Below, in pieces: positions 6,131-64,000 of a DNA stretch of 64,000 nucleotides. The notes under the pieces were generated by a model. The model searched no databases. It worked only from the letters and a program-made list of their open reading frames with translations, and was not told where the DNA came from. The stretch's first letter is position 1; every line of letters begins with the position of its first letter. Location: the NCBI GenBank assembly GCA_964460805.1, contig CAYWPU010000001.1, positions 112,565 to 176,564 of the forward strand, in the 5' to 3' direction. Made by a program: the position numbers and the translations under genes. This stretch comes from an uncultured Candidatus Saccharibacteria bacterium. Its GTDB lineage: Bacteria > Patescibacteriota > Minisyncoccia > Phycocordibacterales > JACOZG01.

Positions 6131-8029
6131 ATGACTAAAACTAGAACTCAATCTGGTCAAACACTCTTAATGATAGTGATGCTCTTTATGCTCGCCTCGC
6201 TGGGCGTGGTTACTGGTCTGGTGGGGCCGGTGGTCCGGGCGAGCCAGAATAGCGCGGAGTTGCTCACTGCCAATCGCAACTATTACGCGGTGGAAGCGGG
6301 GACAGAAGATGTGCTCTACCGTTTGCTCTCCGGTAAAACAGTTTCTAATACAGAGAATCTGACAATTGATAATACTACTGTCGTGACAACTATCACAGAT
6401 AGCTTAGGGGGCAAGACAGTGAACACTGTTGGCAGTAATAATAATACCGTCCGCAAGGTAGAGGCGCGGGTGAGCACTGGTGAGGGTGTAGCTTTCACTT
6501 ATGCTATGCAGGCTGGCAATGGCGGCTTTGATATCAGCGGCGGCTCAACGATCAATGGCAATGTCTATGCCAACGGCAATATCACTGGCAATAGCGGCAC
6601 AATTACCGGCCACGCCACTGCGGCTAATAGCGCGCCCTTGGTGGCCGACCAGGCCAATGCTAGCCCTGCCACGCCCAGCAATAATTTAATTTTTGGTAAT
6701 AGCTCCGGCACGCAAGACTTGGCGCAGAGCTTCCAGGTCGCCAACACCGCGCCGCTGAACAAGGTGCGATTCTATCTCCAGCGCACGGCCACTGCTCCGG
6801 GCAATCTCACTATCCGTTTAGTATCTGATAATAACGGCTCGCCAGCTAGCAACACCGTTGATTCTGTCACGCTGGTAGCGAGCTCCGTACCCACAGCCTA
6901 TGGCTGGGTTGAAGTGAGCTTCAGTGGCTATGTCCAGTTGGAAGCGGGGACCACTTATTGGCTGGTGCTAGATGGCGGCAATAACTCCACCCGGTACTAC
7001 ACCATTGGCGCTAATAATACTTACGCTAGCGGCGTGGCCAAGACTGGCCAGTTCAATGGCAGTTGGGGCAACACCTCGCCCTCAGGCTTGGATGCTTATT
7101 TTGAAGTCTATACCGGCGGACTAACTTCTCAGATCTTTGGCACCGGCGGCTCGCAGTGGTATCAGCCGCTGGCGGTCAATGGCGATAGCTGGGCGCACAC
7201 CGTTTCTCAGACTAACACTAGCGGCACTATCTATTGCCAGGTTGGTATCTATAACGCTGGCGGCAAGACTTGCAATACTTCTCGCCCCGATCCCACGCCG
7301 CAAGGCTTCACAATCGGCGATAATCAGATCCAGGGCTGGAAAGATGACGTGACCAGTGCGCTCACTGGCGGCTGGACTTATTACGGCAATCTCACAATTG
7401 GCTGGCAGGGGACCACCACCACGGCCTTGCGCCGAGTGGAGGGCAACTTAACGGTGAACGGCGGCGGCGTAGCCGACTTGGGCGCTCTGGAGGTGACAGG
7501 CAATGTAACAGTCAGCGGCGGCGGCAGGCTCAAGGCCGGGCCGCTCAAGGTGGGTGGCGCGCTTAACGTGGGCTCTAATGGCTTTACTATTGAGGACACC
7601 GTCTGGGTGGTAGGCAATATTGTGGTGAGTAGCGGTGCTTCCATCAGCTTAGATTCCAGCTATGGCTCGGATAGCGGCGTTGTGGTCTCTGACGGACGCC
7701 TAGACTTGACCGGTGGCGGCGTCTTCTCCGGATCTGGTACTACCGGCAGTTATCCAATTGTGGTTACTACTAGCCGTTGCCCGGCGGATGCCTCTTGCTC
7801 AGGCGCTAACGCCATCACCCAGAGCGGCGGCTCGGGTGCGGTTGTGCTAGTGGCTCCTTATGGTACGCTTAGCGCCAGTGGCGGCACCAGCGCCAGGGCG
7901 ATGACAGCCTACAAGGTGATGATCAGCGGCGGTGGTTCGGTCACTTATGATTCCGGCTTGGCTGATATCAGTCTCTCTAGCGGCCCCTCTGGCGGATTTA
8001 ATATTGAAAGTTGGAAAGAAGTAGAATAA
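6131..8029 (+). CDS. Large pilus-operon protein with N-terminal TM/pilin-like anchor (SGQTLLMIVMLFML) and a Gly/Thr/Asn-rich beta-helix-like body. Putative pilus tip, adhesin or giant minor pilin.
   Basis: 632-aa ORF immediately after the three prepilin genes. Repetitive NGN(V/I)xxNGNITGNSG segments. No catalytic motifs. Confidence 0.4.
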   Translation: MTKTRTQSGQTLLMIVMLFMLASLGVVTGLVGPVVRASQNSAELLTANRNYYAVEAGTEDVLYRLLSGKTVSNTENLTIDNTTVVTTITDSLGGKTVNTVGSNNNTVRKVEARVSTGEGVAFTYAMQAGNGGFDISGGSTINGNVYANGNITGNSGTITGHATAANSAPLVADQANASPATPSNNLIFGNSSGTQDLAQSFQVANTAPLNKVRFYLQRTATAPGNLTIRLVSDNNGSPASNTVDSVTLVASSVPTAYGWVEVSFSGYVQLEAGTTYWLVLDGGNNSTRYYTIGANNTYASGVAKTGQFNGSWGNTSPSGLDAYFEVYTGGLTSQIFGTGGSQWYQPLAVNGDSWAHTVSQTNTSGTIYCQVGIYNAGGKTCNTSRPDPTPQGFTIGDNQIQGWKDDVTSALTGGWTYYGNLTIGWQGTTTTALRRVEGNLTVNGGGVADLGALEVTGNVTVSGGGRLKAGPLKVGGALNVGSNGFTIEDTVWVVGNIVVSSGASISLDSSYGSDSGVVVSDGRLDLTGGGVFSGSGTTGSYPIVVTTSRCPADASCSGANAITQSGGSGAVVLVAPYGTLSASGGTSARAMTAYKVMISGGGSVTYDSGLADISLSSGPSGGFNIESWKEVE

Positions 8030-8030
8030 T

Positions 8031-8801
8031 TTGATGAAGAAAATCATTGTCGCCAACTGGAAGCTTAATCCCGATTCGCCTCGCGAGGCGCGGGAGTTAT
8101 TCTTGAAGATTAAACGCACGGTATCTAAGCTGAAGCGCGTAGAGACTATAATTTGCCCGCCGGCTATTTTTCTGCCTGGTCTGGAGAAGGCGCGAGGGGC
8201 GGCCAAGAACTTGGCACTGGGCGGACAGGACGCCTTCCCGGCCCTAGACGGCGCTTGGACGGGGCAAATTAGTCCGGCGATGATCCGGAAGAGCGGTGCG
8301 CGTTACTTGATCTTGGGTCACTCCGAGAAGCGCGCGCTTGGTGAGAGTAACGAAGTGGTTAACCAAAAGCTTAAGCTCGCTCTGGCCCAGGGTCTAAAAG
8401 TAATCTTGTGCGTGGGTGAGCAGACTCGGGACGCGCAGGGGCATTATTTGCAGACGATCAAAACGCAATTATTAACAGCATTAGAGAAGGTGCCACGGAA
8501 GCTCGGCTCGCAGATCATCATTGCCTACGAGCCAGTCTGGGCGATTGGTGATGCGGCAAAATTTGCAGACACTCCAGCGGGTTTCCTAGAACAAGCAATC
8601 TATATCAGGAAAATCTTGAGTATTTGGATTGAACAAAAAGCGGCGATGCAGGTGCCGGTGCTCTACGGCGGCTCGGTGGATGCCAAGAACGCGCTCGGCT
8701 TCCTTGCTGATGGACAAGCGGACGGCTTGCTGGTGGGTCGTTCTTCGCTCCGGGCTGATATCTTTGGCGAGATTTTAAAATTAGCTGATGCGCTGGCTTA
8801 G
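8031..8801 (+). CDS. tpiA: Triose-phosphate isomerase
   Basis: VANWKLN, ILGHSEKRA, CVGEQ, IAYEPVWAIG and YGGSV motifs. Confidence 0.9.
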   Translation: MMKKIIVANWKLNPDSPREARELFLKIKRTVSKLKRVETIICPPAIFLPGLEKARGAAKNLALGGQDAFPALDGAWTGQISPAMIRKSGARYLILGHSEKRALGESNEVVNQKLKLALAQGLKVILCVGEQTRDAQGHYLQTIKTQLLTALEKVPRKLGSQIIIAYEPVWAIGDAAKFADTPAGFLEQAIYIRKILSIWIEQKAAMQVPVLYGGSVDAKNALGFLADGQADGLLVGRSSLRADIFGEILKLADALA

Positions 8802-10265: not shown

Positions 10266-11957
10266 ATGTCGGAAGATTTGTTAAATCAGCTCTTGCTGGC
10301 GCGCGGACTGGAGACGCCGGAACAGCGCGAGCAATTCCTCCAGCCTAGCTACGCCCGCGATATTGCCGATCCGTTTTTATTATCCGGCATGGAGCAAGCG
10401 GTGGCGAGAGTTCTGCAGGCAATTAAAAATACAGAGAAGATAATAATTTTTGCGGATTATGACGCTGACGGCGTGCCAGGCGCGGCTGTGCTCGCTGAAT
10501 TTTTTAGGAAAATAAAATTTAGTAATTTTGAAGTTTATATTCCCAATAGACACACGGAAGATTACGGCCTGATGGAGAAGAGTGTGCGGGAATTTGCGGC
10601 TAATCAGGCTAAGCTGATCATTACTATAGATTGCGGGATTAGTAATTTTGCAGAAGTAAAATTAGCGAATGAGCTTGGTCTAGACGTGATTATCACTGAC
10701 CACCATCTTCCACCACCGGTTTTGCCAGGGGCTCTTGCGATTGTGAATCCTAAAGTGGGGAGTGAGAATTATCCCGACAAGATGCTCTGTGGCGCGGGAG
10801 TGATTTTTAAGCTAGTCCAGGCGCTAATCGCGCGTGGCGATTTTAATTTAGATAAAAATTGGGAGAAAACACTATTAGATCTAGTAGCTATTGCAACTAT
10901 CTCTGATCGTGTGCCACTGCTGGCCGAGAACCGCGCACTGGCTAAATTTGGCTTGCTGATCCTCCAGCGCACGCCGCGGCCCGGTTTGCTCGCGCTCTTG
11001 CAGGCTGGCAAGATCAAGCAGAAGTACATTACAGAAGATGATATCGGCTATATGCTGGCGCCAAGATTGAATGCGGCAAGCAGGATGAGTCACGCTTCAG
11101 AAGCTTATTTTCTCTTAACGACCAAGAATCCGGCCGAGGCGCAAGCAATGGCGGCGCATCTGGAAAATAAAAATAGCGAACGGAAAAAATTAGTGGAGGG
11201 TATTATGCAAACAGCAGAGTCTAAAATACCTGCAGATGATCTACCAGAGCTGATTGTGTTGGGAGATAAAACTTGGTCGCCGGGTGTGCTGGGCTTGGCG
11301 GCAAGTAAATTGGTAGAAAAATTCTCGCGCCCTGTTTTCCTCTGGGGTGGCAATAATGGCGAAGTAAAAGGCTCCTGCCGCTCAGACGGCACTATCAATC
11401 TTGTGGAACTAATGCGCGCGGTGAACAGAGATGATCCGCCAGCTGGCGGATTCTTCAGTAACCTGGGCGGCCATGCCATGGCTGGCGGCTTCTCGCTCGC
11501 GGCGGCAAAAGTGGCAGAATTAGAGCAGAAGTTGCTGGAGGCTCACGCGCAGGCAGAGAAATTGGAACCGGAAGCAGAAAATAAGTTTGACGCGGCTATC
11601 TCTATTGATGAAGTAGACGAGCGCGCCTGGCGGCTGCTAGAGCAACTCGCGCCATTTGGCCCCGGCAATCCCAAACCAATTTTCTATCTGCCGAATATAG
11701 AAATTGCTCAGGCCAGGACCTTTGGCAACGGCGGCATCCACCTGGAGTTGAGCTTTAAGAAAAGCAATCCGCCATCCGCCGGCTGGCGGAGCGGAGAAAA
11801 AGTCTGCGCCGTAGGCTTCTTCACCAGTTCTAGCAAGTTTAAAGATGTGAAGTTAACAGCGGGGAGCAAGATCAATCTCTATGCCACGCTGGAGAAGTCG
11901 TTCTTTAAAGCTAATCCGGAAATCAGGTTGCGGATAGTGGATATTGTGGCTCAGTAG
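10266..11957 (+). CDS. recJ: Single-stranded-DNA-specific exonuclease RecJ
   Basis: DHH family motifs (ADYDADGV, ITDHH), DHHA1 region and C-terminal OB-like domain. Confidence 0.8.
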   Translation: MSEDLLNQLLLARGLETPEQREQFLQPSYARDIADPFLLSGMEQAVARVLQAIKNTEKIIIFADYDADGVPGAAVLAEFFRKIKFSNFEVYIPNRHTEDYGLMEKSVREFAANQAKLIITIDCGISNFAEVKLANELGLDVIITDHHLPPPVLPGALAIVNPKVGSENYPDKMLCGAGVIFKLVQALIARGDFNLDKNWEKTLLDLVAIATISDRVPLLAENRALAKFGLLILQRTPRPGLLALLQAGKIKQKYITEDDIGYMLAPRLNAASRMSHASEAYFLLTTKNPAEAQAMAAHLENKNSERKKLVEGIMQTAESKIPADDLPELIVLGDKTWSPGVLGLAASKLVEKFSRPVFLWGGNNGEVKGSCRSDGTINLVELMRAVNRDDPPAGGFFSNLGGHAMAGGFSLAAAKVAELEQKLLEAHAQAEKLEPEAENKFDAAISIDEVDERAWRLLEQLAPFGPGNPKPIFYLPNIEIAQARTFGNGGIHLELSFKKSNPPSAGWRSGEKVCAVGFFTSSSKFKDVKLTAGSKINLYATLEKSFFKANPEIRLRIVDIVAQ

Positions 11958-11988: not shown

Positions 11989-12017
11989 TTGACTTTTAAA
12001 CTCGTTTGGTATATAAT
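11989..12017 (+). promoter_or_regulatory. Sigma70-type promoter: TTGACT (11989-11994), 17-nt spacer, TATAAT (12012-12017)
   Basis: Near-consensus hexamers. Sits upstream of the conserved leader (12018-12092) and the gene at 12093. Confidence 0.6.
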
Positions 12018-12092
12018 AGGGGCTGCTAGAGCGTTTCTAGCTCTTTGAGAACGAGAACCCGTTTTTTGGCTAAACTGCCAAGAGGTGCAGAA
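12018..12092 (+). promoter_or_regulatory. Conserved structured 5' leader element (copy 1): GGGGCUGCUAGAGCGUUUCUAGCUCUUUGAGAACGAGAACCCGUUUUUUGGCUAAA. Possible attenuator or small RNA.
   Basis: Roughly 90% identical to 16216-16273. Contains the hairpin AGAGC-guuucua-GCUCU, and an outer GGG...CCC pairing followed by a U6 run. Confidence 0.45.
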
Positions 12093-12341
12093 ATGATTTT
12101 TACGGAAAAATATCCACCGATTTCACCTGGGACACGTGTCAAGACGATCCAAGAAGACAAAAGGGTCATCCAGAGTTATGGAGGAAAAAGAGAAAGTGTG
12201 CAATGGGGTGTTGAGGGTGAGGTGCTCTGTCATTCCGATTGTCATGGGCTTTGTTATTATGTCAGGCACGATGACGGAAGGTCTGTCACATACGCTTGGT
12301 ATGAGCCGACAGAACTGAAAGTTATCACTGACGAGAGGTGA
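12093..12341 (+). CDS. Hypothetical small protein (82 aa, Cys/His-containing: LCHSDCHGLCYYVRHDDG)
   Basis: ATG 12093 preceded by RBS agaggtg. No family recognised. Confidence 0.45.
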   Translation: MIFTEKYPPISPGTRVKTIQEDKRVIQSYGGKRESVQWGVEGEVLCHSDCHGLCYYVRHDDGRSVTYAWYEPTELKVITDER

Positions 12342-12442
12342 TCTGCTTTAAGTGTTCACCAACAGCGCCGTCCCAAATCTGGGTACGGCGCTTTTTTCTT
12401 TGCCTCAAAAACTTTTCTCGCTTAGAATGGAGGGACGAAAAA

Positions 12443-16183: not shown

Positions 16184-16187
16184 CCCC

Positions 16188-16215
16188 TTGACAAGTTCTA
16201 CCCATTTGCTATAAT
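16188..16215 (+). promoter_or_regulatory. Sigma70-type promoter (family copy): TTGACA (16188-16193), 16-nt spacer AGTTCTACCCATTTGC, extended TGcTATAAT (16210-16215)
   Basis: Identical or near-identical to the promoters at 62328-62355 and 62881-62909. Confidence 0.65.
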
Positions 16216-16299
16216 AGGGGTTGCTAGAGTGTTTCTAGCTCTTTGAGAACAAGAACCCGTTTTTTTTGGCTAAAAATATAGCCAGAAGGAGAAGAGGAA
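16216..16299 (+). promoter_or_regulatory. Conserved structured 5' leader element (copy 2)
   Basis: AGGGGTTGCTAGAGTGTTTCTAGCTCTTTGAGAACAAGAACCCGTTTTTTTTGGCTAAAAA, roughly 90% identical to 12018-12075. Followed by RBS GGAGAAGAGG and ATG 16300. Confidence 0.45.
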
Positions 16300-16677
16300 A
16301 TGAGGATCTTGATTGTGATATGGGTCGTGGGTCTGGCATTGCTCACCGGTTGTGATCCGCCTGAAGAAGGGGGCGGTGCGTTGCGGAAAACGAATCAGGC
16401 CCAAGTCATTGATCTTTCTGTCTGTCGGACAGTAGGGAATCACACATATATCCCTATCAAGAAGTGTGGTTTCAGCCCGGATGACATCCACGAAGAGATC
16501 CTCCAGATTCTCCAAGCCTTCGAGCAGAGACACCTAGATTGGGTTGTGATTAGCTGGGCTACAGAGGCCAATCATAATTCTCATTCATACCCGGCGAACA
16601 CTTATGGTCTGTGGGTCAATCACTTGCCAAGAGAGGAGCTGAGACAGCTCCTCTCTACCAGTCAGCCAGCAGGCTAA
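16300..16677 (+). CDS. Hypothetical lipoprotein
   Basis: Signal peptide with lipobox LLTGC. Strong RBS. No family recognised. Confidence 0.5.
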   Translation: MRILIVIWVVGLALLTGCDPPEEGGGALRKTNQAQVIDLSVCRTVGNHTYIPIKKCGFSPDDIHEEILQILQAFEQRHLDWVVISWATEANHNSHSYPANTYGLWVNHLPREELRQLLSTSQPAG

Positions 16678-16757
16678 TCTGGCTCGGCTAGATTCGGCCT
16701 CAATCGCGCTACCTCACAAGTAGCGCGATTTTTATTTATTGTGCTAAGCTAGTTGAT

Positions 16758-17240
16758 ATGAGAAAGCTGTTTATTAGTTTTGCGGTTTTGAGTTTATTCT
16801 TTATTTTTGCAATACCTGCGCGGGCGCAGTCTTCTGTGGATCACACTCAAATCGTTTCTATCTTAGAGCGCTTGGCCAGACTATTGCCGTCTCCTCTACT
16901 ACCGCCTTCGTCGTCTGGGATCCTGGTGATAGTGAGAGACGAGCCGCCGGCGATCAAGAGCGTGAGCGGTCCGGCAGAGCTGGCGGCGGGGGAGAACGGT
17001 AAGTGGTGGATCCGCGTTGCCGATCCCTCAGCCAGTCCGCTAGTCTACAGCGTGCGCTGGGGCGACGATGGCGAGCGCGTCCAGGCTACCAAAGCGCCTT
17101 CTTATATCCCGGATGTGAAGTATCAGACCATTGTTTTCAATCACACTTATCGTGATGCTGGAGTTTATCAGATTATCGTCAGCGCCACTGATCAGTTTGG
17201 GCAGACGGCCAGCAGAGAGCTAAGTGTTAAGGTGATTTGA
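16758..17240 (+). CDS. Secreted PKD-domain protein
   Basis: Signal peptide (FAIPARAQS). PKD-like segment YSVRWGDDGE...HTYRDAGVYQIIVSATDQFGQTAS. Confidence 0.5.
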   Translation: MRKLFISFAVLSLFFIFAIPARAQSSVDHTQIVSILERLARLLPSPLLPPSSSGILVIVRDEPPAIKSVSGPAELAAGENGKWWIRVADPSASPLVYSVRWGDDGERVQATKAPSYIPDVKYQTIVFNHTYRDAGVYQIIVSATDQFGQTASRELSVKVI

Positions 17241-59122: not shown

Positions 59123-60082
59123 TTGACCACCAGCTTGTCTAGCATCAAGATCAAGCAGAATGTCCCGCTTGCGCCACTTACCAGCTTTGGTTTGGGCGGC
59201 CGTGCGCGTTATTACTTGCGAGTCAGCTCGTCTCAAGAGTTTGCTCAGGCGGTGGCCTTGGCTCGGCAACTCAAGATACCTCATCTCATTTTTGCCGGCG
59301 GGAGTAATGTCGTTTTCTCCGATCAAGATTACGAGTGTTTAGTAATCCACTATCTAGACGCGAGCAAGCCGGTGCTTAGGGAAACAGGCTCTGGAGTGGT
59401 GCTGGAGGCCTCCGCAGGCCTCGCCTTGGCGAGTTTGATCAAGAGCAGTATCAACCACAGCTTGGCTGGTTTGGAGGCGCTCTCGGGCATCCCGGGGACT
59501 GTGGGGGGCGCTATTGTGGGCAATGCCGGCGCTTATGGTCAGAGCATCTCAGACAAGATTACTGAAGTAGAAATCTTTGACGGCAAAAGAGTGCGCTGGA
59601 TCAAGAGAGTGGCTTGCAAGTTTGCTTATCGTGATAGCGTCTTTAAAGATAAAAATTCGCCGGCTGGCGAGTGGTTGGTCTTGCGGGTGCGGTTTGCGCT
59701 GGAGAAAGGAGATAAGAAAAAGTTAGCGCAGAAGTCGCGGGAGATCATCAGGATCAGGAACGAGAGATATAAGCCGGGTCTCAAGTGCCCGGGGAGCTAC
59801 TTCAAAAACGTCCTGGTAAAAAATGTTTCTCAGAAAGCGTTAAGCAAAATAGACAAAGTGAAAATTATAGACGGCAAGATCCCGACTGGTTACTTGCTTG
59901 AATCAGTTGGCGCGCGAGGGATGCGTGAAGCTGATATAGAAGTGGCGAGCTTCCACGGCAATTTATTATTTAATAACGGCAAAGGCAAAACCAAAGATGT
60001 CAAAATTCTTGCGGAAAAACTAAAGAAATTAGTCTGGCGGAAATTTGGTATCAAACTTGAGGAGGAAGTGAGATATATTTGA
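59123..60082 (+). CDS. murB: UDP-N-acetylenolpyruvoylglucosamine reductase
   Basis: FAD-binding N-terminus TSFGLGGRARYY...IFAGGSNVVF and MurB C-terminal domain. Confidence 0.75.
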   Translation: MTTSLSSIKIKQNVPLAPLTSFGLGGRARYYLRVSSSQEFAQAVALARQLKIPHLIFAGGSNVVFSDQDYECLVIHYLDASKPVLRETGSGVVLEASAGLALASLIKSSINHSLAGLEALSGIPGTVGGAIVGNAGAYGQSISDKITEVEIFDGKRVRWIKRVACKFAYRDSVFKDKNSPAGEWLVLRVRFALEKGDKKKLAQKSREIIRIRNERYKPGLKCPGSYFKNVLVKNVSQKALSKIDKVKIIDGKIPTGYLLESVGARGMREADIEVASFHGNLLFNNGKGKTKDVKILAEKLKKLVWRKFGIKLEEEVRYI

Positions 60083-60154
60083 CAGATTTAGAACTATTTG
60101 CTAATATAGAGCTCGGTAATCAAGCTGATTTGTTCAGCAGAAAGTGAGGTCTTT

Positions 60155-60520
60155 GTGATTAAAAAAGAGTTTTTCGGATTATTGCGGCGGGCGGTAGGGT
60201 CAGGGTCTTTCCAGGCATTCGTTAATAGCTTTGGTCAGGTCCGCCTACGTCGAGGAAAGAGTTGTCGATGTTTTTGCCCTATCGAGGCCGTTGTCTTCTT
60301 CCTGACCGGGAAATTTGTAAAAGTTGAGACCGAGTTGGAGGCGTACAATTATCTGGGTATCCGAGAAAGTGTGAGCTATAGCATCATTGATGCTGCCGAC
60401 ATGGATTACTACGATAGGGATGCATGGTGTGGTTGCTCGGTCGTTCGCGCACGACAATACCGCCGTCTCCTACTGCACGCCTGCGGCTTGCCGATGCCGA
60501 AGCGGAAGAAAGTGGCATAG
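60155..60520 (+). CDS. Hypothetical protein (GTG start)
   Basis: RBS GTGAGG 8 nt upstream. Followed by the terminator at 60531-60574. Confidence 0.35.
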   Translation: MIKKEFFGLLRRAVGSGSFQAFVNSFGQVRLRRGKSCRCFCPIEAVVFFLTGKFVKVETELEAYNYLGIRESVSYSIIDAADMDYYDRDAWCGCSVVRARQYRRLLLHACGLPMPKRKKVA

Positions 60521-60530
60521 TCTGCAATCA

Positions 60531-60574
60531 AAAGCCCAGCGCGATGACTCGCGCTGGGCTGATTTTTTTTTTGC
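60531..60574. terminator. Bidirectional rho-independent terminator AGCCCAGCGCG-atgact-CGCGCTGGGCT followed by T10
   Basis: 11-bp perfect stem and a long T-run. Confidence 0.75.
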
Positions 60575-60880: not shown

Positions 60881-62308
60881 ATGACTGCTTCTAATACTGA
60901 CTCGGGAACTGATTTACAGCTCACTGTTGGCTTGGAGATCCACGCGGAGCTCAAGACGGAGACTAAGATGTTCTGCCGGAGCAAGAACGATCCGGATGAA
61001 AAGAAGCCAAACGTGAACGTCTGTCCGGTTTGCCTCGCGCATCCGGGGACTCTGCCTACTCTCAACAAAAAGGCGATAGAGCACGTCTTGCGCGTGGGCT
61101 TGGCGCTGGGCGGCAAGCTGGCTGACTATACAGAATTTGACCGGAAAAATTACTTTTATCCAGATATACCGAAAGGTTATCAGATCAGCCAGTACAAGTT
61201 CCCGTTAGTTGCTGGCGGGAAACTGAACGGCGTGGAGTTGACGCGGATTCACTTGGAGGAAGATACGGCGCGGAATCAGCATAGTGACGAGCAAGATGGC
61301 GAGAGTTTGGTGGATCATAACCGCGCTGGTGTGCCGCTGATGGAGCTGGTTACCGAGCCCGTCATTACTAGTGCTAAGCAAGCTGGCGACTTTGCGCGCG
61401 AGTTCCAGCTCTTGCTGAGATACTTAGACGTGAGCGAGGCGAATATGGAGAAGGGCGAATTGCGAGTGGAGGCGAATATTTCCGTAGCGCCGGCCGGAGA
61501 CCCCTCGACGGGACTCGGGGTAAAGGGAACAAAAGTGGAAGTGAAGAATCTCAACTCTTTTAGGTCTGTTGAAAAAGCAATTGAATACGAACTAGCGCGG
61601 CAGAAGCGAGCGCTGGAGAAAGGCGAGAAGATTGTGCAAGAGACACGCGGCTGGGACGACGCCAAAGGCGAGACTTATTCGCAACGCAAAAAAGAATCTT
61701 CTCACGACTACAGATATTTTCCTGATCCAGATTTGCCTAAATTAAAAATTAGCGAAATTGCTGAATTTGCTGAAGCAAATTTAAGTAAAACGATCCCCGA
61801 ATTGCCGTGGCAGAAGCGGGAGCGCTTGCTCGCGCTGGGCTTGCAAGCGCAGGACGTGGAAGCGTATGTGAGCGATCTAGAATTAGGGCATTATTTTGAG
61901 CAGGTGATCGCTGGACTATCTGATTCTGGTCTGGCCAAAACCGCTTCTAATTTTATCTCTAACGATATTGTGGGTCTATTGAAGAAAGATGAGAAGTTAA
62001 AATTGCCGGCTGTTTCTAGTTTGGTAAAAATTATTAAATTATTTAGCGAGAAAAAGTTTAATTCTCGCCAGGCTAAAGATGCGCTTGAGAATCTGGTAAA
62101 ACATGGGACGGAAGCAGTGGAAGGCGCGAGTGTAGATTTAGGCGAAATTATTACTCAAATTATCGCTAGCAACTCTAAAGTGGTAGCAGAATATCAGAGT
62201 GGCAAGACGAGTGTTTTGCAGTTTTTAGTCGGCCAGGGGATGAAGTTGAGCAAGGGGAGCGCTAATCCGGAGGCGTTGAAAGAGATGCTGGAAAAAGCTT
62301 TAAAATAG
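60881..62308 (+). CDS. gatB: Asp-tRNA(Asn)/Glu-tRNA(Gln) amidotransferase subunit B
   Basis: GLEIHAELKTETKMFC...NVCPVCLAHPG (GatB N-terminus) and C-terminal GatB/YqeY domain. The track ORF is extended upstream to 60593. Confidence 0.85.
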   Translation: MTASNTDSGTDLQLTVGLEIHAELKTETKMFCRSKNDPDEKKPNVNVCPVCLAHPGTLPTLNKKAIEHVLRVGLALGGKLADYTEFDRKNYFYPDIPKGYQISQYKFPLVAGGKLNGVELTRIHLEEDTARNQHSDEQDGESLVDHNRAGVPLMELVTEPVITSAKQAGDFAREFQLLLRYLDVSEANMEKGELRVEANISVAPAGDPSTGLGVKGTKVEVKNLNSFRSVEKAIEYELARQKRALEKGEKIVQETRGWDDAKGETYSQRKKESSHDYRYFPDPDLPKLKISEIAEFAEANLSKTIPELPWQKRERLLALGLQAQDVEAYVSDLELGHYFEQVIAGLSDSGLAKTASNFISNDIVGLLKKDEKLKLPAVSSLVKIIKLFSEKKFNSRQAKDALENLVKHGTEAVEGASVDLGEIITQIIASNSKVVAEYQSGKTSVLQFLVGQGMKLSKGSANPEALKEMLEKALK

Positions 62309-62327
62309 GCCTCAAAACGCTGTTGCT

Positions 62328-62355
62328 TGCCAACGACTTGACAATTTCTGCCCAT
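62328..62355 (+). promoter_or_regulatory. Sigma70-type promoter (family copy): TTGACA, spacer ATTTCTGCCCATTTGC, TATACT
   Basis: Shares a 26/28-nt core with the promoters at 16188 and 62881. Sits upstream of the RRM-protein gene with a roughly 130-nt leader. Confidence 0.55.
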
Positions 62356-62485
62356 TTGCTATACTTGACCTTGTAAGTGTTTTCTCGCGATGTATTCTTA
62401 CGCTTTGGCGCTAAGGAGGACCAGGAGAAAAAGCTGGCAATAAGCTGGCAAAGTCGCCTTACACCATTGTTAAACAACTCAATAA

Positions 62486-62788
62486 ATGGCTAAGAAATTG
62501 TATGTCGGTGGCCTGCCTTACGCTACCACTGAGGATTCGCTGAAAAGCGCTTTCGCTCAGGCTGGTAACGTGGAGTCTGCCAACATCATCATGGATCGGA
62601 TGACCGGTCGCTCTAAGGGCTTCGGTTTCGTCCAGATGGTCACTGATGAGGAAGCCGACAAGGCTATTGAAATGTGGAACGGCAAGGAGTTTGAGGGTCG
62701 CAAGTTGACCGTCAACGAGGCCCGCCCACTGGAGGCTCGTCCTCCTCGCCGCAACGGCGGTTTCGATCGCGGTGGCAGCAACTGGTAA
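62486..62788 (+). CDS. RRM-type glycine-rich RNA-binding protein
   Basis: RNP2 KLYVGGLPY and RNP1 KGFGFVQM, with an RGG/Gly-rich tail. Confidence 0.85.
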   Translation: MAKKLYVGGLPYATTEDSLKSAFAQAGNVESANIIMDRMTGRSKGFGFVQMVTDEEADKAIEMWNGKEFEGRKLTVNEARPLEARPPRRNGGFDRGGSNW

Positions 62789-62880
62789 TTCACCAGTCCT
62801 GTGCACAAGAAAAACTCTCCCAGTAAAACGGGGGAGTTTTTCTTTTAGTTCTTGTTGTTTGTCTCAAGTCTTGACAATTT

Positions 62881-62909
62881 CTACCCATTTGCTATAATTG
62901 AGGCAGGAG
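62881..62909 (+). promoter_or_regulatory. Sigma70-type promoter (family copy): TTGACA, spacer ATTTCTACCCATTTGC, TATAAT
   Basis: Matches 16188-16215 except for one spacer base. ATG at 62918. Confidence 0.65.
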
Positions 62910-62917
62910 GTTTTGTT

Positions 62918-63202
62918 ATGAACGTAAAGTTCTTTAAACGGCTGATCAGACCCTTTTGGCGTCCTTGGTGGTTGCGTTGGTGTTGGTGGCTGGAGACTAA
63001 AAACCTGGAGTTGGATTTACATCTGCCAACCCACCATCAACCGATGAGATGGTGTCGTAATCTTAAGGTTCTGGGATTCAGTAATGTGGGAGAGGTTACT
63101 TGTGTGGAATTGAGTGGCACAGAGAATGGGTTTCCTCTCTATTCAGTGTCTCACATTTGCGGCATTACAATCCGCGTTGTAGATCCAGGACACCCAGATT
63201 AG
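62918..63202 (+). CDS. Hypothetical small Trp/Arg-rich protein (MNVKFFKRLIRPFWRPWWLRWCWWLETK...)
   Basis: ATG 9 nt after the consensus promoter. GGAGG lies upstream. Terminator at 63212-63248. Confidence 0.4.
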   Translation: MNVKFFKRLIRPFWRPWWLRWCWWLETKNLELDLHLPTHHQPMRWCRNLKVLGFSNVGEVTCVELSGTENGFPLYSVSHICGITIRVVDPGHPD

Positions 63203-63211
63203 GTCTGACAG

Positions 63212-63248
63212 AAACGCCGCGCTCAAGATTTGGGCCGGCGTTTTCTAT
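63212..63248 (+). terminator. Rho-independent terminator AACGCCG-(16 nt)-CGGCGTTTT
   Basis: 7-bp GC-rich stem plus T-run. Confidence 0.5.
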
Positions 63249-63335
63249 TGCCAAGAACCACTTCGTCTGCTATATTTAGCTCTCGCCGCTCCTGCGGCTA
63301 AAATTTTTCGCTTTTTATTTTTAATTATTAAAGTA

Positions 63336-64000
63336 ATGGAAATCAGGAACGTTGCTATCATCGCGCACGTTGACCACGGCAAGACCACACTGGTGGATGC
63401 GCTTTTGCGTCAGAGCAAAACTAAAATCTCTAAAGAGACTAGCGAGAAGGGGGATTTGATCATGGACTCTAACGACCTAGAGCGGGAGAGAGGTATTACT
63501 ATTTTTGCCAAGAACGCGGCGGTGAAGTGGGGCGAGCTGAAGATAAATATTATTGATACGCCCGGCCACGCGGACTTTGGCGGTGAGGTGGAACGCGTGC
63601 TCAAGATGGCCGATGGCTGTTTGCTCTTGGTTGATGCCAAAGAGGGTCCAATGCCGCAGACTAGATTTGTGTTGAAGAAAGCATTGGCTCTGGGTCTCAA
63701 GATTATTGTGGTGGTAAATAAAATAGATAAGCCAGACGCGCGGGTGGATTACGTGCTAGATAAAACTCTGGAATTATTTCTGGAACTGGGGGCGAGTGAC
63801 GAGCTGGCTAATTTCCCCGTGCTCTATGCGTCCGCTCGTGCTGGTCTGGCCGGCAGGGAAGCTGATTTGAGTAAAATGACAGATATCGCGCCGGTCTTTG
63901 AGATGATTATTAAGGAGATCAAGCCGCCGGCTGGAGATCCAAATCAACCTCTGCAGATCTTGGTGACCACTATTGCTGGTGACGAGTGGAAGGGTCGGAT
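63336..64000 (+). CDS. typA: Translational GTPase TypA/BipA, 3'-truncated at the window edge
   Basis: [32 protein letters not shown] and NKIDKPDAR motifs. The frame stays open to the window end. Confidence 0.8.
   Translation, partial: MEIRNVAIIAHVDHGKTTLVDALLRQSKTKISKETSEKGDLIMDSNDLERERGITIFAKNAAVKWGELKINIIDTPGHADFGGEVERVLKMADGCLLLVDAKEGPMPQTRFVLKKALALGLKIIVVVNKIDKPDARVDYVLDKTLELFLELGASDELANFPVLYASARAGLAGREADLSKMTDIAPVFEMIIKEIKPPAGDPNQPLQILVTTIAGDEWKGR

Follow-up and report, generated by a model that had tools for sequence, protein, structure and literature searches.

A 64,000-nucleotide stretch of DNA from an uncultured Candidatus Saccharibacteria bacterium (contig CAYWPU010000001.1, positions 112,565 to 176,564; referred to below as the window) raises the question of why one promoter sequence, spacer included, should stand in front of unrelated genes at several sites. 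On the + strand of the window, the degenerate 29-mer CTTGACAAKTTCTRCCCATTTGCTATAMT is matched without a mismatch at 16187-16215, 62337-62365, and 62870-62898 (w1, w2, and w3, respectively), and 100 dinucleotide-preserving shuffles gave 0 matches to it (expected 0.00 versus 3 observed); this copy count covers the 64-kb window. The matches bear out the initial annotation, which had described a near-identical promoter at three sites; its coordinates for the first copy (16185-16215) were essentially right, but those for the other two (62327-62355 and 62880-62909) were each ~10 nt off. As developed below, the copies are probably the outcome of promoter reuse accompanied by mosaic recombination.

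Each copy contains a -35 element TTGACA, a 16-nt spacer ending in TGC, and a -10 element TATAAT, which in the copy that precedes a gene for an RRM-type RNA-binding protein (w2) reads TATACT. The three copies differ pairwise at 1-3 of 29 positions (positions 9, 14, and 28), and their -35 plus -10 hexamers score 12/12 (w1), 11/12 (w2), and 12/12 (w3); in w1, these elements occupy 16188-16193 and 16210-16215. The TG at -15/-14 corresponds to an extended -10 element (TGn), and TTTGC immediately precedes the -10 element (TATAAT) in 3/3 copies. All copies are intergenic, past an upstream stop codon or terminator, and are followed within 20-120 nt by an AGGAG-type site and an ATG: w1 lies 4 nt past the stop codon of an M50 protease gene, w2 lies 29 nt past that of gatB, and w3 is followed by AGGAGG and an ATG at 62918. 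In its sequence elements, the 29-mer thus has the full anatomy of a near-consensus housekeeping-sigma (sigma70/sigmaA) promoter with an extended -10, of predicted activity and strength. Exact matches to the spacer core TTCTRCCCATTTGC occur in the window at w1, w2, and w3 only, looser matches to this core are at chance level (13 versus 10.7 expected), and no copy of the 29-mer with 3-9 mismatches was found in the window. The w3 copy is identical to the family consensus. The 29-mer also contains a weak direct repeat, ATTTCTA/ATTTGCTA, that was spotted by eye. A loosely related fifth promoter at 60079-60107 (TTGACA-GATTTAGAACTATTTGC-TAATAT, with a 17-nt spacer) shares TTT…ATTTGC-TA with the family.

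The similarity among the copies is essentially restricted to the promoter itself. Ungapped identity among w1, w2, and w3 falls off right after TATAAT, leaving a shared stretch of 29-35 nt, and a gapped alignment of w2 with w3 adds ~17 nt upstream (to ~50 nt at most), an extension that is not significant (162/1000 shuffles). The genes 5' of the copies (M50 protease, gatB, and RRM genes) are mutually unrelated, as are those 3' of them (a 125-aa lipoprotein-like open reading frame (ORF), the RRM protein gene, and a 94-aa ORF). Because the flanks and the downstream genes of the three copies are unrelated, we conclude that they did not arise by gene duplication; a search for a longer duplicated segment, the finding that the initial annotation had named as fatal to its proposal of promoter reuse, likewise returned only unrelated flanks, and this proposal stands. 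The same arrangement, including both copies near 62 kb, is present at 99.8-100% identity in independent assemblies of five other sequencing runs. The window strain itself (99.8-100% identity over 61859-63574) was found on short contigs from the Logan runs SRR22388160, SRR31322477, DRR774217, SRR27317614, and DRR774219 (L009-L013; L numbers denote loci from other assemblies), in which one single-nucleotide polymorphism alone recurs, 63143 T>C, and it falls within the 94-aa orphan ORF.

Every copy stands at the head of a one-gene unit made up of promoter, leader, one small ORF, and a predicted intrinsic terminator, and these units, whose features are all on the + strand, lie between same-strand housekeeping genes at synteny breaks relative to related genomes. 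In the w1 unit, a 125-aa orphan ORF (16300-16677) with a lipoprotein-like signal (…LLTGC) is followed by an intrinsic terminator at 16702-16740; no homologue of this ORF other than itself was found among 5.8 billion protein clusters. The w2 unit consists of a 5' leader (62366-62485) that is kept in all relatives examined, the gene for the 100-aa RRM_1 RNA-binding protein (62486-62788), and an intrinsic terminator with a 15-bp stem and a T-run (62807-62852). The w3 unit carries the 94-aa orphan ORF (62918-63202) and is closed by a terminator-like hairpin (63211-63244), after which typA has its own promoter (63248-63276, TTGCCA-17-TATATT). When the w3 ORF was compared with 1.84 billion representative proteins, the single match besides itself was a 539-aa protein, and this match is weak, with residues 58-86 (a 29-residue stretch, E 7e-11) matching nine times within that protein. 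The loosely related promoter at 60079-60107 heads a comparable unit, in which an orphan ORF of 121 aa from a GTG start (60155-60520) precedes a strong bidirectional terminator (60533-60568); this unit sits within ~825 nt that are missing between murB and gatB in the nearest relative.

The window orphan ORFs had no match in Pfam or PHROG searches, and an all-against-all BLASTP of the cargo proteins gave 0 matches below E = 0.01; the RRM gene is the one conserved exception among otherwise mutually unrelated orphan ORFs. The GC content at third codon positions (GC3) is 43-48% in two of the window orphans compared with 53-65% in neighboring genes. The RRM leader (…GTAAGTGTTTTCTCGCGATGTATTCTTACGC…) is conserved in 6/6 relatives examined, including those with an altered promoter spacer, and may act in autoregulation or stability; it had no Rfam match, and its single-sequence fold was no better than those of shuffles.

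The initial annotation had also listed a looser fourth copy at 11989. A promoter of the form TTGACT-17-TATAAT does exist there (11989-12017), but its spacer is unrelated to that of the 29-mer family, and its kinship with w1 runs through the leader instead. Positions 12012-12067 and 16210-16265 are 95% identical over 56 nt from TATAAT downstream, a similarity that extends to ~75 nt and reaches the ribosome-binding site when gaps are allowed. The 11989 unit follows recJ and comprises an 82-aa orphan ORF without a family match (12093-12341) and an intrinsic terminator (12364-12398, z = -6.6). The leader in question (leader L) occupies 16216-16299 in the w1 unit, where a 5' hairpin is followed by a U-run pairing with the Shine-Dalgarno region, and 12018-12092 in the 11989 unit. 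The w1 unit is in this sense a chimera of two modules, the family promoter that it shares with w2 and w3 and the leader that it shares with 11989, from which we conclude that promoter and leader are separate modules. In L019, from the closest relative, the reverse combination was observed: leader L stands behind a different promoter in the slot after the M50 protease gene, and the family promoter (with 5 mismatches) stands before another leader in the slot after recJ.

Leader L precedes three unrelated ORFs (window 16216-16299 and 12018-12092, and L019 6653-6737), and its run of 6-8 U is predicted to pair with the AGAAGGAG ribosome-binding site, an arrangement reminiscent of an RNA thermometer of the fourU type, or of a translational gate. 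In L002 and L004, the leaders have a hairpin of related form whose stem sequences differ, and CCTTGAAAAC comes after it. Rfam searches of the whole window at the gathering threshold, together with E-value searches around the four sites, returned no known RNA family and only terminator-like noise. No terminal or flanking inverted repeats are common to the four sites, and no direct target repeats were found. An outward promoter borne on a miniature inverted-repeat transposable element or an insertion sequence was rejected as a candidate, since the four sites share no inverted repeats and the similarity ends at the promoter.

How far the spacer is conserved was assessed in relatives retrieved independently of the motif, by way of GatB (83-66% identical) and of the M50 protease (87-69% identical). 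Six orthologous RRM promoters were compared, five from relatives found through GatB (L015, L016, L017, L018, and L024) and one (L014) found through its identical RRM protein. In all six, the -35 element, the -10 element, and the leader are kept, and 4-14 of 29 positions differ from the family consensus, most of them in the "ACCC" core of the spacer. The spacers of L015, L016, and L018 carry …TCACCCGTG, L024 has another sequence, and L017 matches at 12/17 positions; the RRM gene uses other spacers in 5/6 relatives. The spacer types are discordant with GatB relatedness, as the window and L017 have one type and L015, L016, and L018 another, though the window is closest to L015. Across the motif-independent promoters as a set, the -35 and -10 elements are nearly invariant and the central "ACCC" is the most variable part.

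The strain variant L014 (ENA ERZ3756518) differs from the window within the promoter. When L014 (positions 1-62 being those of note here) was aligned to window 62336-62810, this contig, which encodes an identical RRM protein, proved to be 100% identical to the window from 62351 on and to carry 4 substitutions within 62345-62350, whereas the sequence 5' of the -35 box is unrelated. The left flank of L014, CTTGTTACTTGACAAAA, agrees with a slot promoter of L015 at 17/17 positions. This pattern suggests a recombination breakpoint inside the promoter spacer, unless the contig is chimeric. At position 9737 of L015, a diverged family promoter with a 17-nt spacer has the same right half as the family, ATTTGC-TAcAAT-AGGGGTTG.

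The w2 copy is itself at a junction, where the stretch from gatB to the RRM promoter is longer by ~200-300 nt in relatives. Some 200 nt of this extra region are conserved and structured (L016 ~11410-11650, L015 ~8000-8257, L017, and L018) and are absent from the window between 62309 and 62336. The region is equipped with a promoter (CTTGAC-N17-(G/A)ATAAT) and a terminator of its own, and its consensus fold contains 58 pairs, 18 of them with compensatory changes, with no Rfam match; it is a candidate unannotated small RNA gene that was deleted in the window genome. Another small RNA gene may lie at L023 2330-2560, where the recJ slot contains a promoter, ~200 nt of structured-looking sequence, and a strong terminator, with no ORF.

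Replacement of the gene behind a retained promoter was observed upstream of frr, where L001, L008, and L004 are orthologous loci with flanks that are 77-84% identical. The promoter module is kept in all three (L004 matches the other two at ~92% over 66-75 nt), and the ORF between promoter and terminator is non-homologous in each. L001 and L008 become homologous again precisely where the terminator behind the variable ORF begins to align, and frr has its own promoter; in L004, the upstream gene differs too, and the 66-nt promoter module forms a conserved island between two non-homologous segments. Other positions vary as well: the slots after recJ and after the M50 protease gene hold different orphans, or none, depending on the genome, and the murB-gatB slot and the slot between the RRM or a desaturase gene and typA hold different ORFs or none across genomes. 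Diverged family promoters occur in the recJ slot of L019 (CTTGACAAGTTCTGTGTATTTGCTATAAT, 5 mismatches) and in the M50 slot of L021 (9 mismatches). The stretch between the M50 protease gene and rpsL (window 16758-17240, and L019-L023) is a variable island that holds zero to three genes for surface proteins with PKD or PG_binding domains, depending on the genome, and in L023 an ECF-type (extracytoplasmic function) sigma factor gene.

Copies in other genomes were located with an exact 26-mer pattern in species-representative genomes and in metagenomes. Among the former, the 26-mer occurs twice in the Patescibacteria metagenome-assembled genome (MAG) H41-bin100_1 and once in a Faecousia MAG; in the metagenome scan, it was present on Hainich groundwater contigs from wells H41 and H51, three of them from H51. 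These copies precede small ORFs that are unrelated to each other and to the ORFs of the window. H41-bin100_1 is truly related to the window organism, with 73% identity between the M50 proteases and synteny from recJ to fusA. L005 is syntenic with the w3 locus in having the promoter, a small ORF, and typA, and although typA is 73% identical at the DNA level, the ORF behind the promoter is a different one. Between L001 and L002, 76 nt are shared at 88% identity. These distributions modify the proposal of the initial annotation that a promoter cassette had recently been duplicated: the reuse is upheld, but the copying was not simply within this genome, as the 26-mer heads other genes in related ones. 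The distant relatives L020, L022, L023, and L024 contain no family copy within 9 mismatches, and the family is therefore limited to a sub-clade; it is specific to one clade of groundwater Patescibacteria (Paceibacteria/'Nomurabacteria'-like). No match to the 26-mer or to the junction between -10 element and leader was found when viral contigs were scanned for both, so there is no evidence for a phage vehicle.

Two observations on these copies stand apart. The 98-aa membrane protein encoded behind a promoter copy of H41-bin100_1 (L002 2229-2522, - strand) matches phrog_902, a family of unknown function (E 7e-12), which hints that some cargo ORFs come from mobile elements. The copy in the gut Firmicute (L003 6152-6183, Faecousia sp. 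MAG JBJDYI010000151.1) is 31/32 identical to the promoter version of L008 and lies upstream of a gene for a 369-aa membrane protein, the surroundings being otherwise non-homologous; as its origin, chance (a plausible one, since consensus elements are enriched), horizontal transfer, and contamination are indistinguishable.

Based on these results, the three promoters probably reflect promoter reuse specific to this lineage, of the kind described as 'putative mobile promoters', together with mosaic recombination. The identity of the spacers would reflect the descent of all copies from one promoter sequence that was copied to new sites, and the copies would exchange segments by short-tract recombination, which is proposed to account for the varying combinations of -35/spacer half, -10-proximal half, and leader. 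Recombination is also what we infer as the mechanism of copying. At each new site, the reused promoter could supply ready-made strong expression to a newly acquired or newly arisen gene.

Several findings count against this explanation. No mobilizing agent was identified, in that no terminal inverted repeats, no viral contigs carrying the element, and no recombinase genes beside the copies were found. The similarity among w1, w2, and w3 (29-35 nt) is below the 50-nt criterion used for putative mobile promoters, and L014 is a 523-nt contig at 1.7x coverage that could be chimeric. Exact 26-29-mers also persist where housekeeping genes are only ~70-75% identical at the DNA level, which is unexpected under neutral descent alone, so that the explanation also needs either selection acting on the element as a whole or a recent horizontal spread. 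The uniformity of the cross-genome copies is partly an ascertainment effect of the exact-match pattern and is not used here as evidence of selection. Some direct constraint through contacts with RNA polymerase is possible, and it would help explain how exact copies persist across diverged genomes.

Such constraint could in principle account for the identity of the spacers on its own, either through RNA polymerase contacts (the T-rich tract with TGn, and the ACC core at -21 to -19) or through the operator of a dedicated regulator, in which case the genes would be a co-regulated set whose promoters are alike by purifying selection or convergence and not by copying; we consider this unlikely. The retention of the identical 26-mer at that level of housekeeping divergence is in its favor, as are the bimodal similarity of the copies (0-2 mismatches or >=5) and the frr promoter module, which is better conserved than its coding flanks. 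Polymerase is also known to sense spacers: sigma70 does so near -18, through R451 (PMC3130263), and the beta' zipper recognizes a 'Z-element' mapped at -22 to -18 (AACCT in T7A1, or AACAT) with effects of ~2-fold (PMC3173786). The family promoter has ACCCA at -22 to -18, with an ACC core at the Z-element position, and TG at -15/-14 after a run of T's, and it combines all known basal elements. However, the Z-element and TGn are short and loosely conserved, the apparent likeness to the Z-element comes to three bases, and ~2-fold effects seem too weak to fix 16 spacer positions, whose identity they leave unexplained; convergence on 16 positions is implausible. At promoters ascertained by synteny or by the RRM protein, moreover, conservation is lowest in the central spacer and almost complete in -35 and -10, and L014 has four spacer changes beside an otherwise identical gene and leader. 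The operator version in particular is not supported, because the 29-mer has no dyad symmetry beyond that of shuffles (its best score was equalled in 471/500), the spacer varies at orthologous promoters (as noted, in 5/6 relatives for the RRM gene), and the sets of genes served differ between genomes; no regulator gene adjoins the copies. These findings give no support to the factor-binding site 'CCCATTTGC' that the initial annotation had suggested in the spacer as one of two possibilities; for ATTTGC, a T-rich extended -10 (TGn) is the better explanation.

The exchange of ORFs at fixed positions could instead mean that the unit that moves is a gene cassette (insulating terminator, promoter, leader, ORF, and terminator), or that promoter and terminator act as portable homology arms for ORF swaps after DNA uptake; either would imply a dedicated exchange system in place of incidental promoter reuse, and we think this quite improbable. 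It accords with the precise swap of the frr locus ORF between a conserved promoter and a conserved terminator, with the promoter island of L004, with the variable ORF content of the recJ, M50, murB-gatB, and RRM/desaturase-typA slots, with the low GC3 of two window orphans, with the match of one cargo protein to the phage family phrog_902, and with the presence of the competence gene comEC in the same region. On the other hand, there is no common 3' recombination site, terminators being shared between orthologous loci only; no integrase or transposase gene lies beside any copy, and inverted or direct target repeats are lacking; the window copies share the 29-mer alone and lack a common module upstream; the promoter also serves the conserved RRM gene; and identical cargo at two sites was not seen. 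As a related idea, promoter and terminator might delimit 'expression slots' at which orphan ORFs are exchanged by homologous recombination after DNA uptake, with the ~30-75-bp promoter module as the portable homology arm; we regard this as tentative and rather unlikely, and, if true, such slots would amount to recombinase-free cassette exchange for trying out new genes in very small genomes. Finally, a merely fortuitous likeness among three good sigma-70-like promoters, or an error of assembly, has practically no standing. The single 26-mer in the unrelated Faecousia MAG is an isolated match that we estimate to be plausible by chance given the enrichment of hexamers and TG, but three matches in the window against none in 100 shuffles, and the recovery of the arrangement at 99.8-100% identity from five other runs, refute this explanation.

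Promoter reuse with mosaic recombination has precedents against which the family can be set. Putative mobile promoters are similar promoters found upstream of non-homologous genes (Matus-Garcia et al. 2012, PMC3488235; Nijveen et al. 2012, PMC3575422), defined by >=50 nt aligned at >=80% identity with non-homologous genes upstream and downstream (PMC3488235). Their families are small, some are shared between genomes, a transposase is not necessarily involved, and duplication by recombination is one proposed mechanism (PMC3488235). The present family is like them in that both the downstream and the upstream coding sequences are non-homologous. It is unlike them in that w1, w2, and w3 fall short of 50 nt at 80%, a similarity reached only by the leader pair of w1 and 11989 (56 nt, 95%) and by L001/L002 (76 nt, 88%); in that the reused piece is exactly the RNA polymerase footprint, -36 to -7; and in that the modules recombine and the copies go together with orphan-gene units located at synteny breaks. 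Patescibacteria, to which the clade analyzed here belongs, were not covered by the survey of putative mobile promoters (PMC3488235). The phenomenon probably corresponds to the promoter reuse already published, here in a lineage-specific case.

Other systems resemble the family in part. The cassettes read from the integron promoter Pc are unrelated small genes in a conserved promoter context, with variable content at a fixed position, and are themselves promoterless; here, no integrase, attI, attC, or array is present, and each unit has its own promoter and terminator. Integron-type cassettes were rejected as a candidate on the grounds that the 3' ends are ordinary terminators without a shared motif, that the units have their own promoters and no flanking repeats, and that their neighbors are housekeeping genes. 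Operators of the repressor or MerR type also place conserved sequence between -35 and -10, but MerR-type spacers are typically 19-20 nt long, whereas the spacer here is 16 nt, lacks dyad symmetry, and varies at orthologous promoters. The promoters of phage single-subunit polymerases (T7, T3, and SP6) are contiguous conserved sequences of ~23 nt, and the family is like them in being conserved base for base as a whole before unrelated genes and in ending in TATA followed by G's; unlike them, it has canonical -35 and -10 elements at sigma-70 spacing plus TGn, no viral contigs carry it, and no single-subunit polymerase was seen. A T7-type promoter was rejected for the reason that the sigma-70 elements are perfect and correctly spaced.

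Patescibacteria have tiny genomes with few regulators, and to our knowledge almost nothing is known of their transcription signals. A 29-mer that is conserved base for base and made up entirely of consensus elements is a concrete candidate, open to testing, for a strong promoter native to these uncultivated bacteria, and would as such help in interpreting metatranscriptomes and in building genetic tools. The association of reused promoter modules with orphan genes at synteny breaks offers a handle on how new or foreign genes come to be expressed in reduced genomes, and the promoter-orphan units mark sites at which gene turnover can be followed in groundwater populations.

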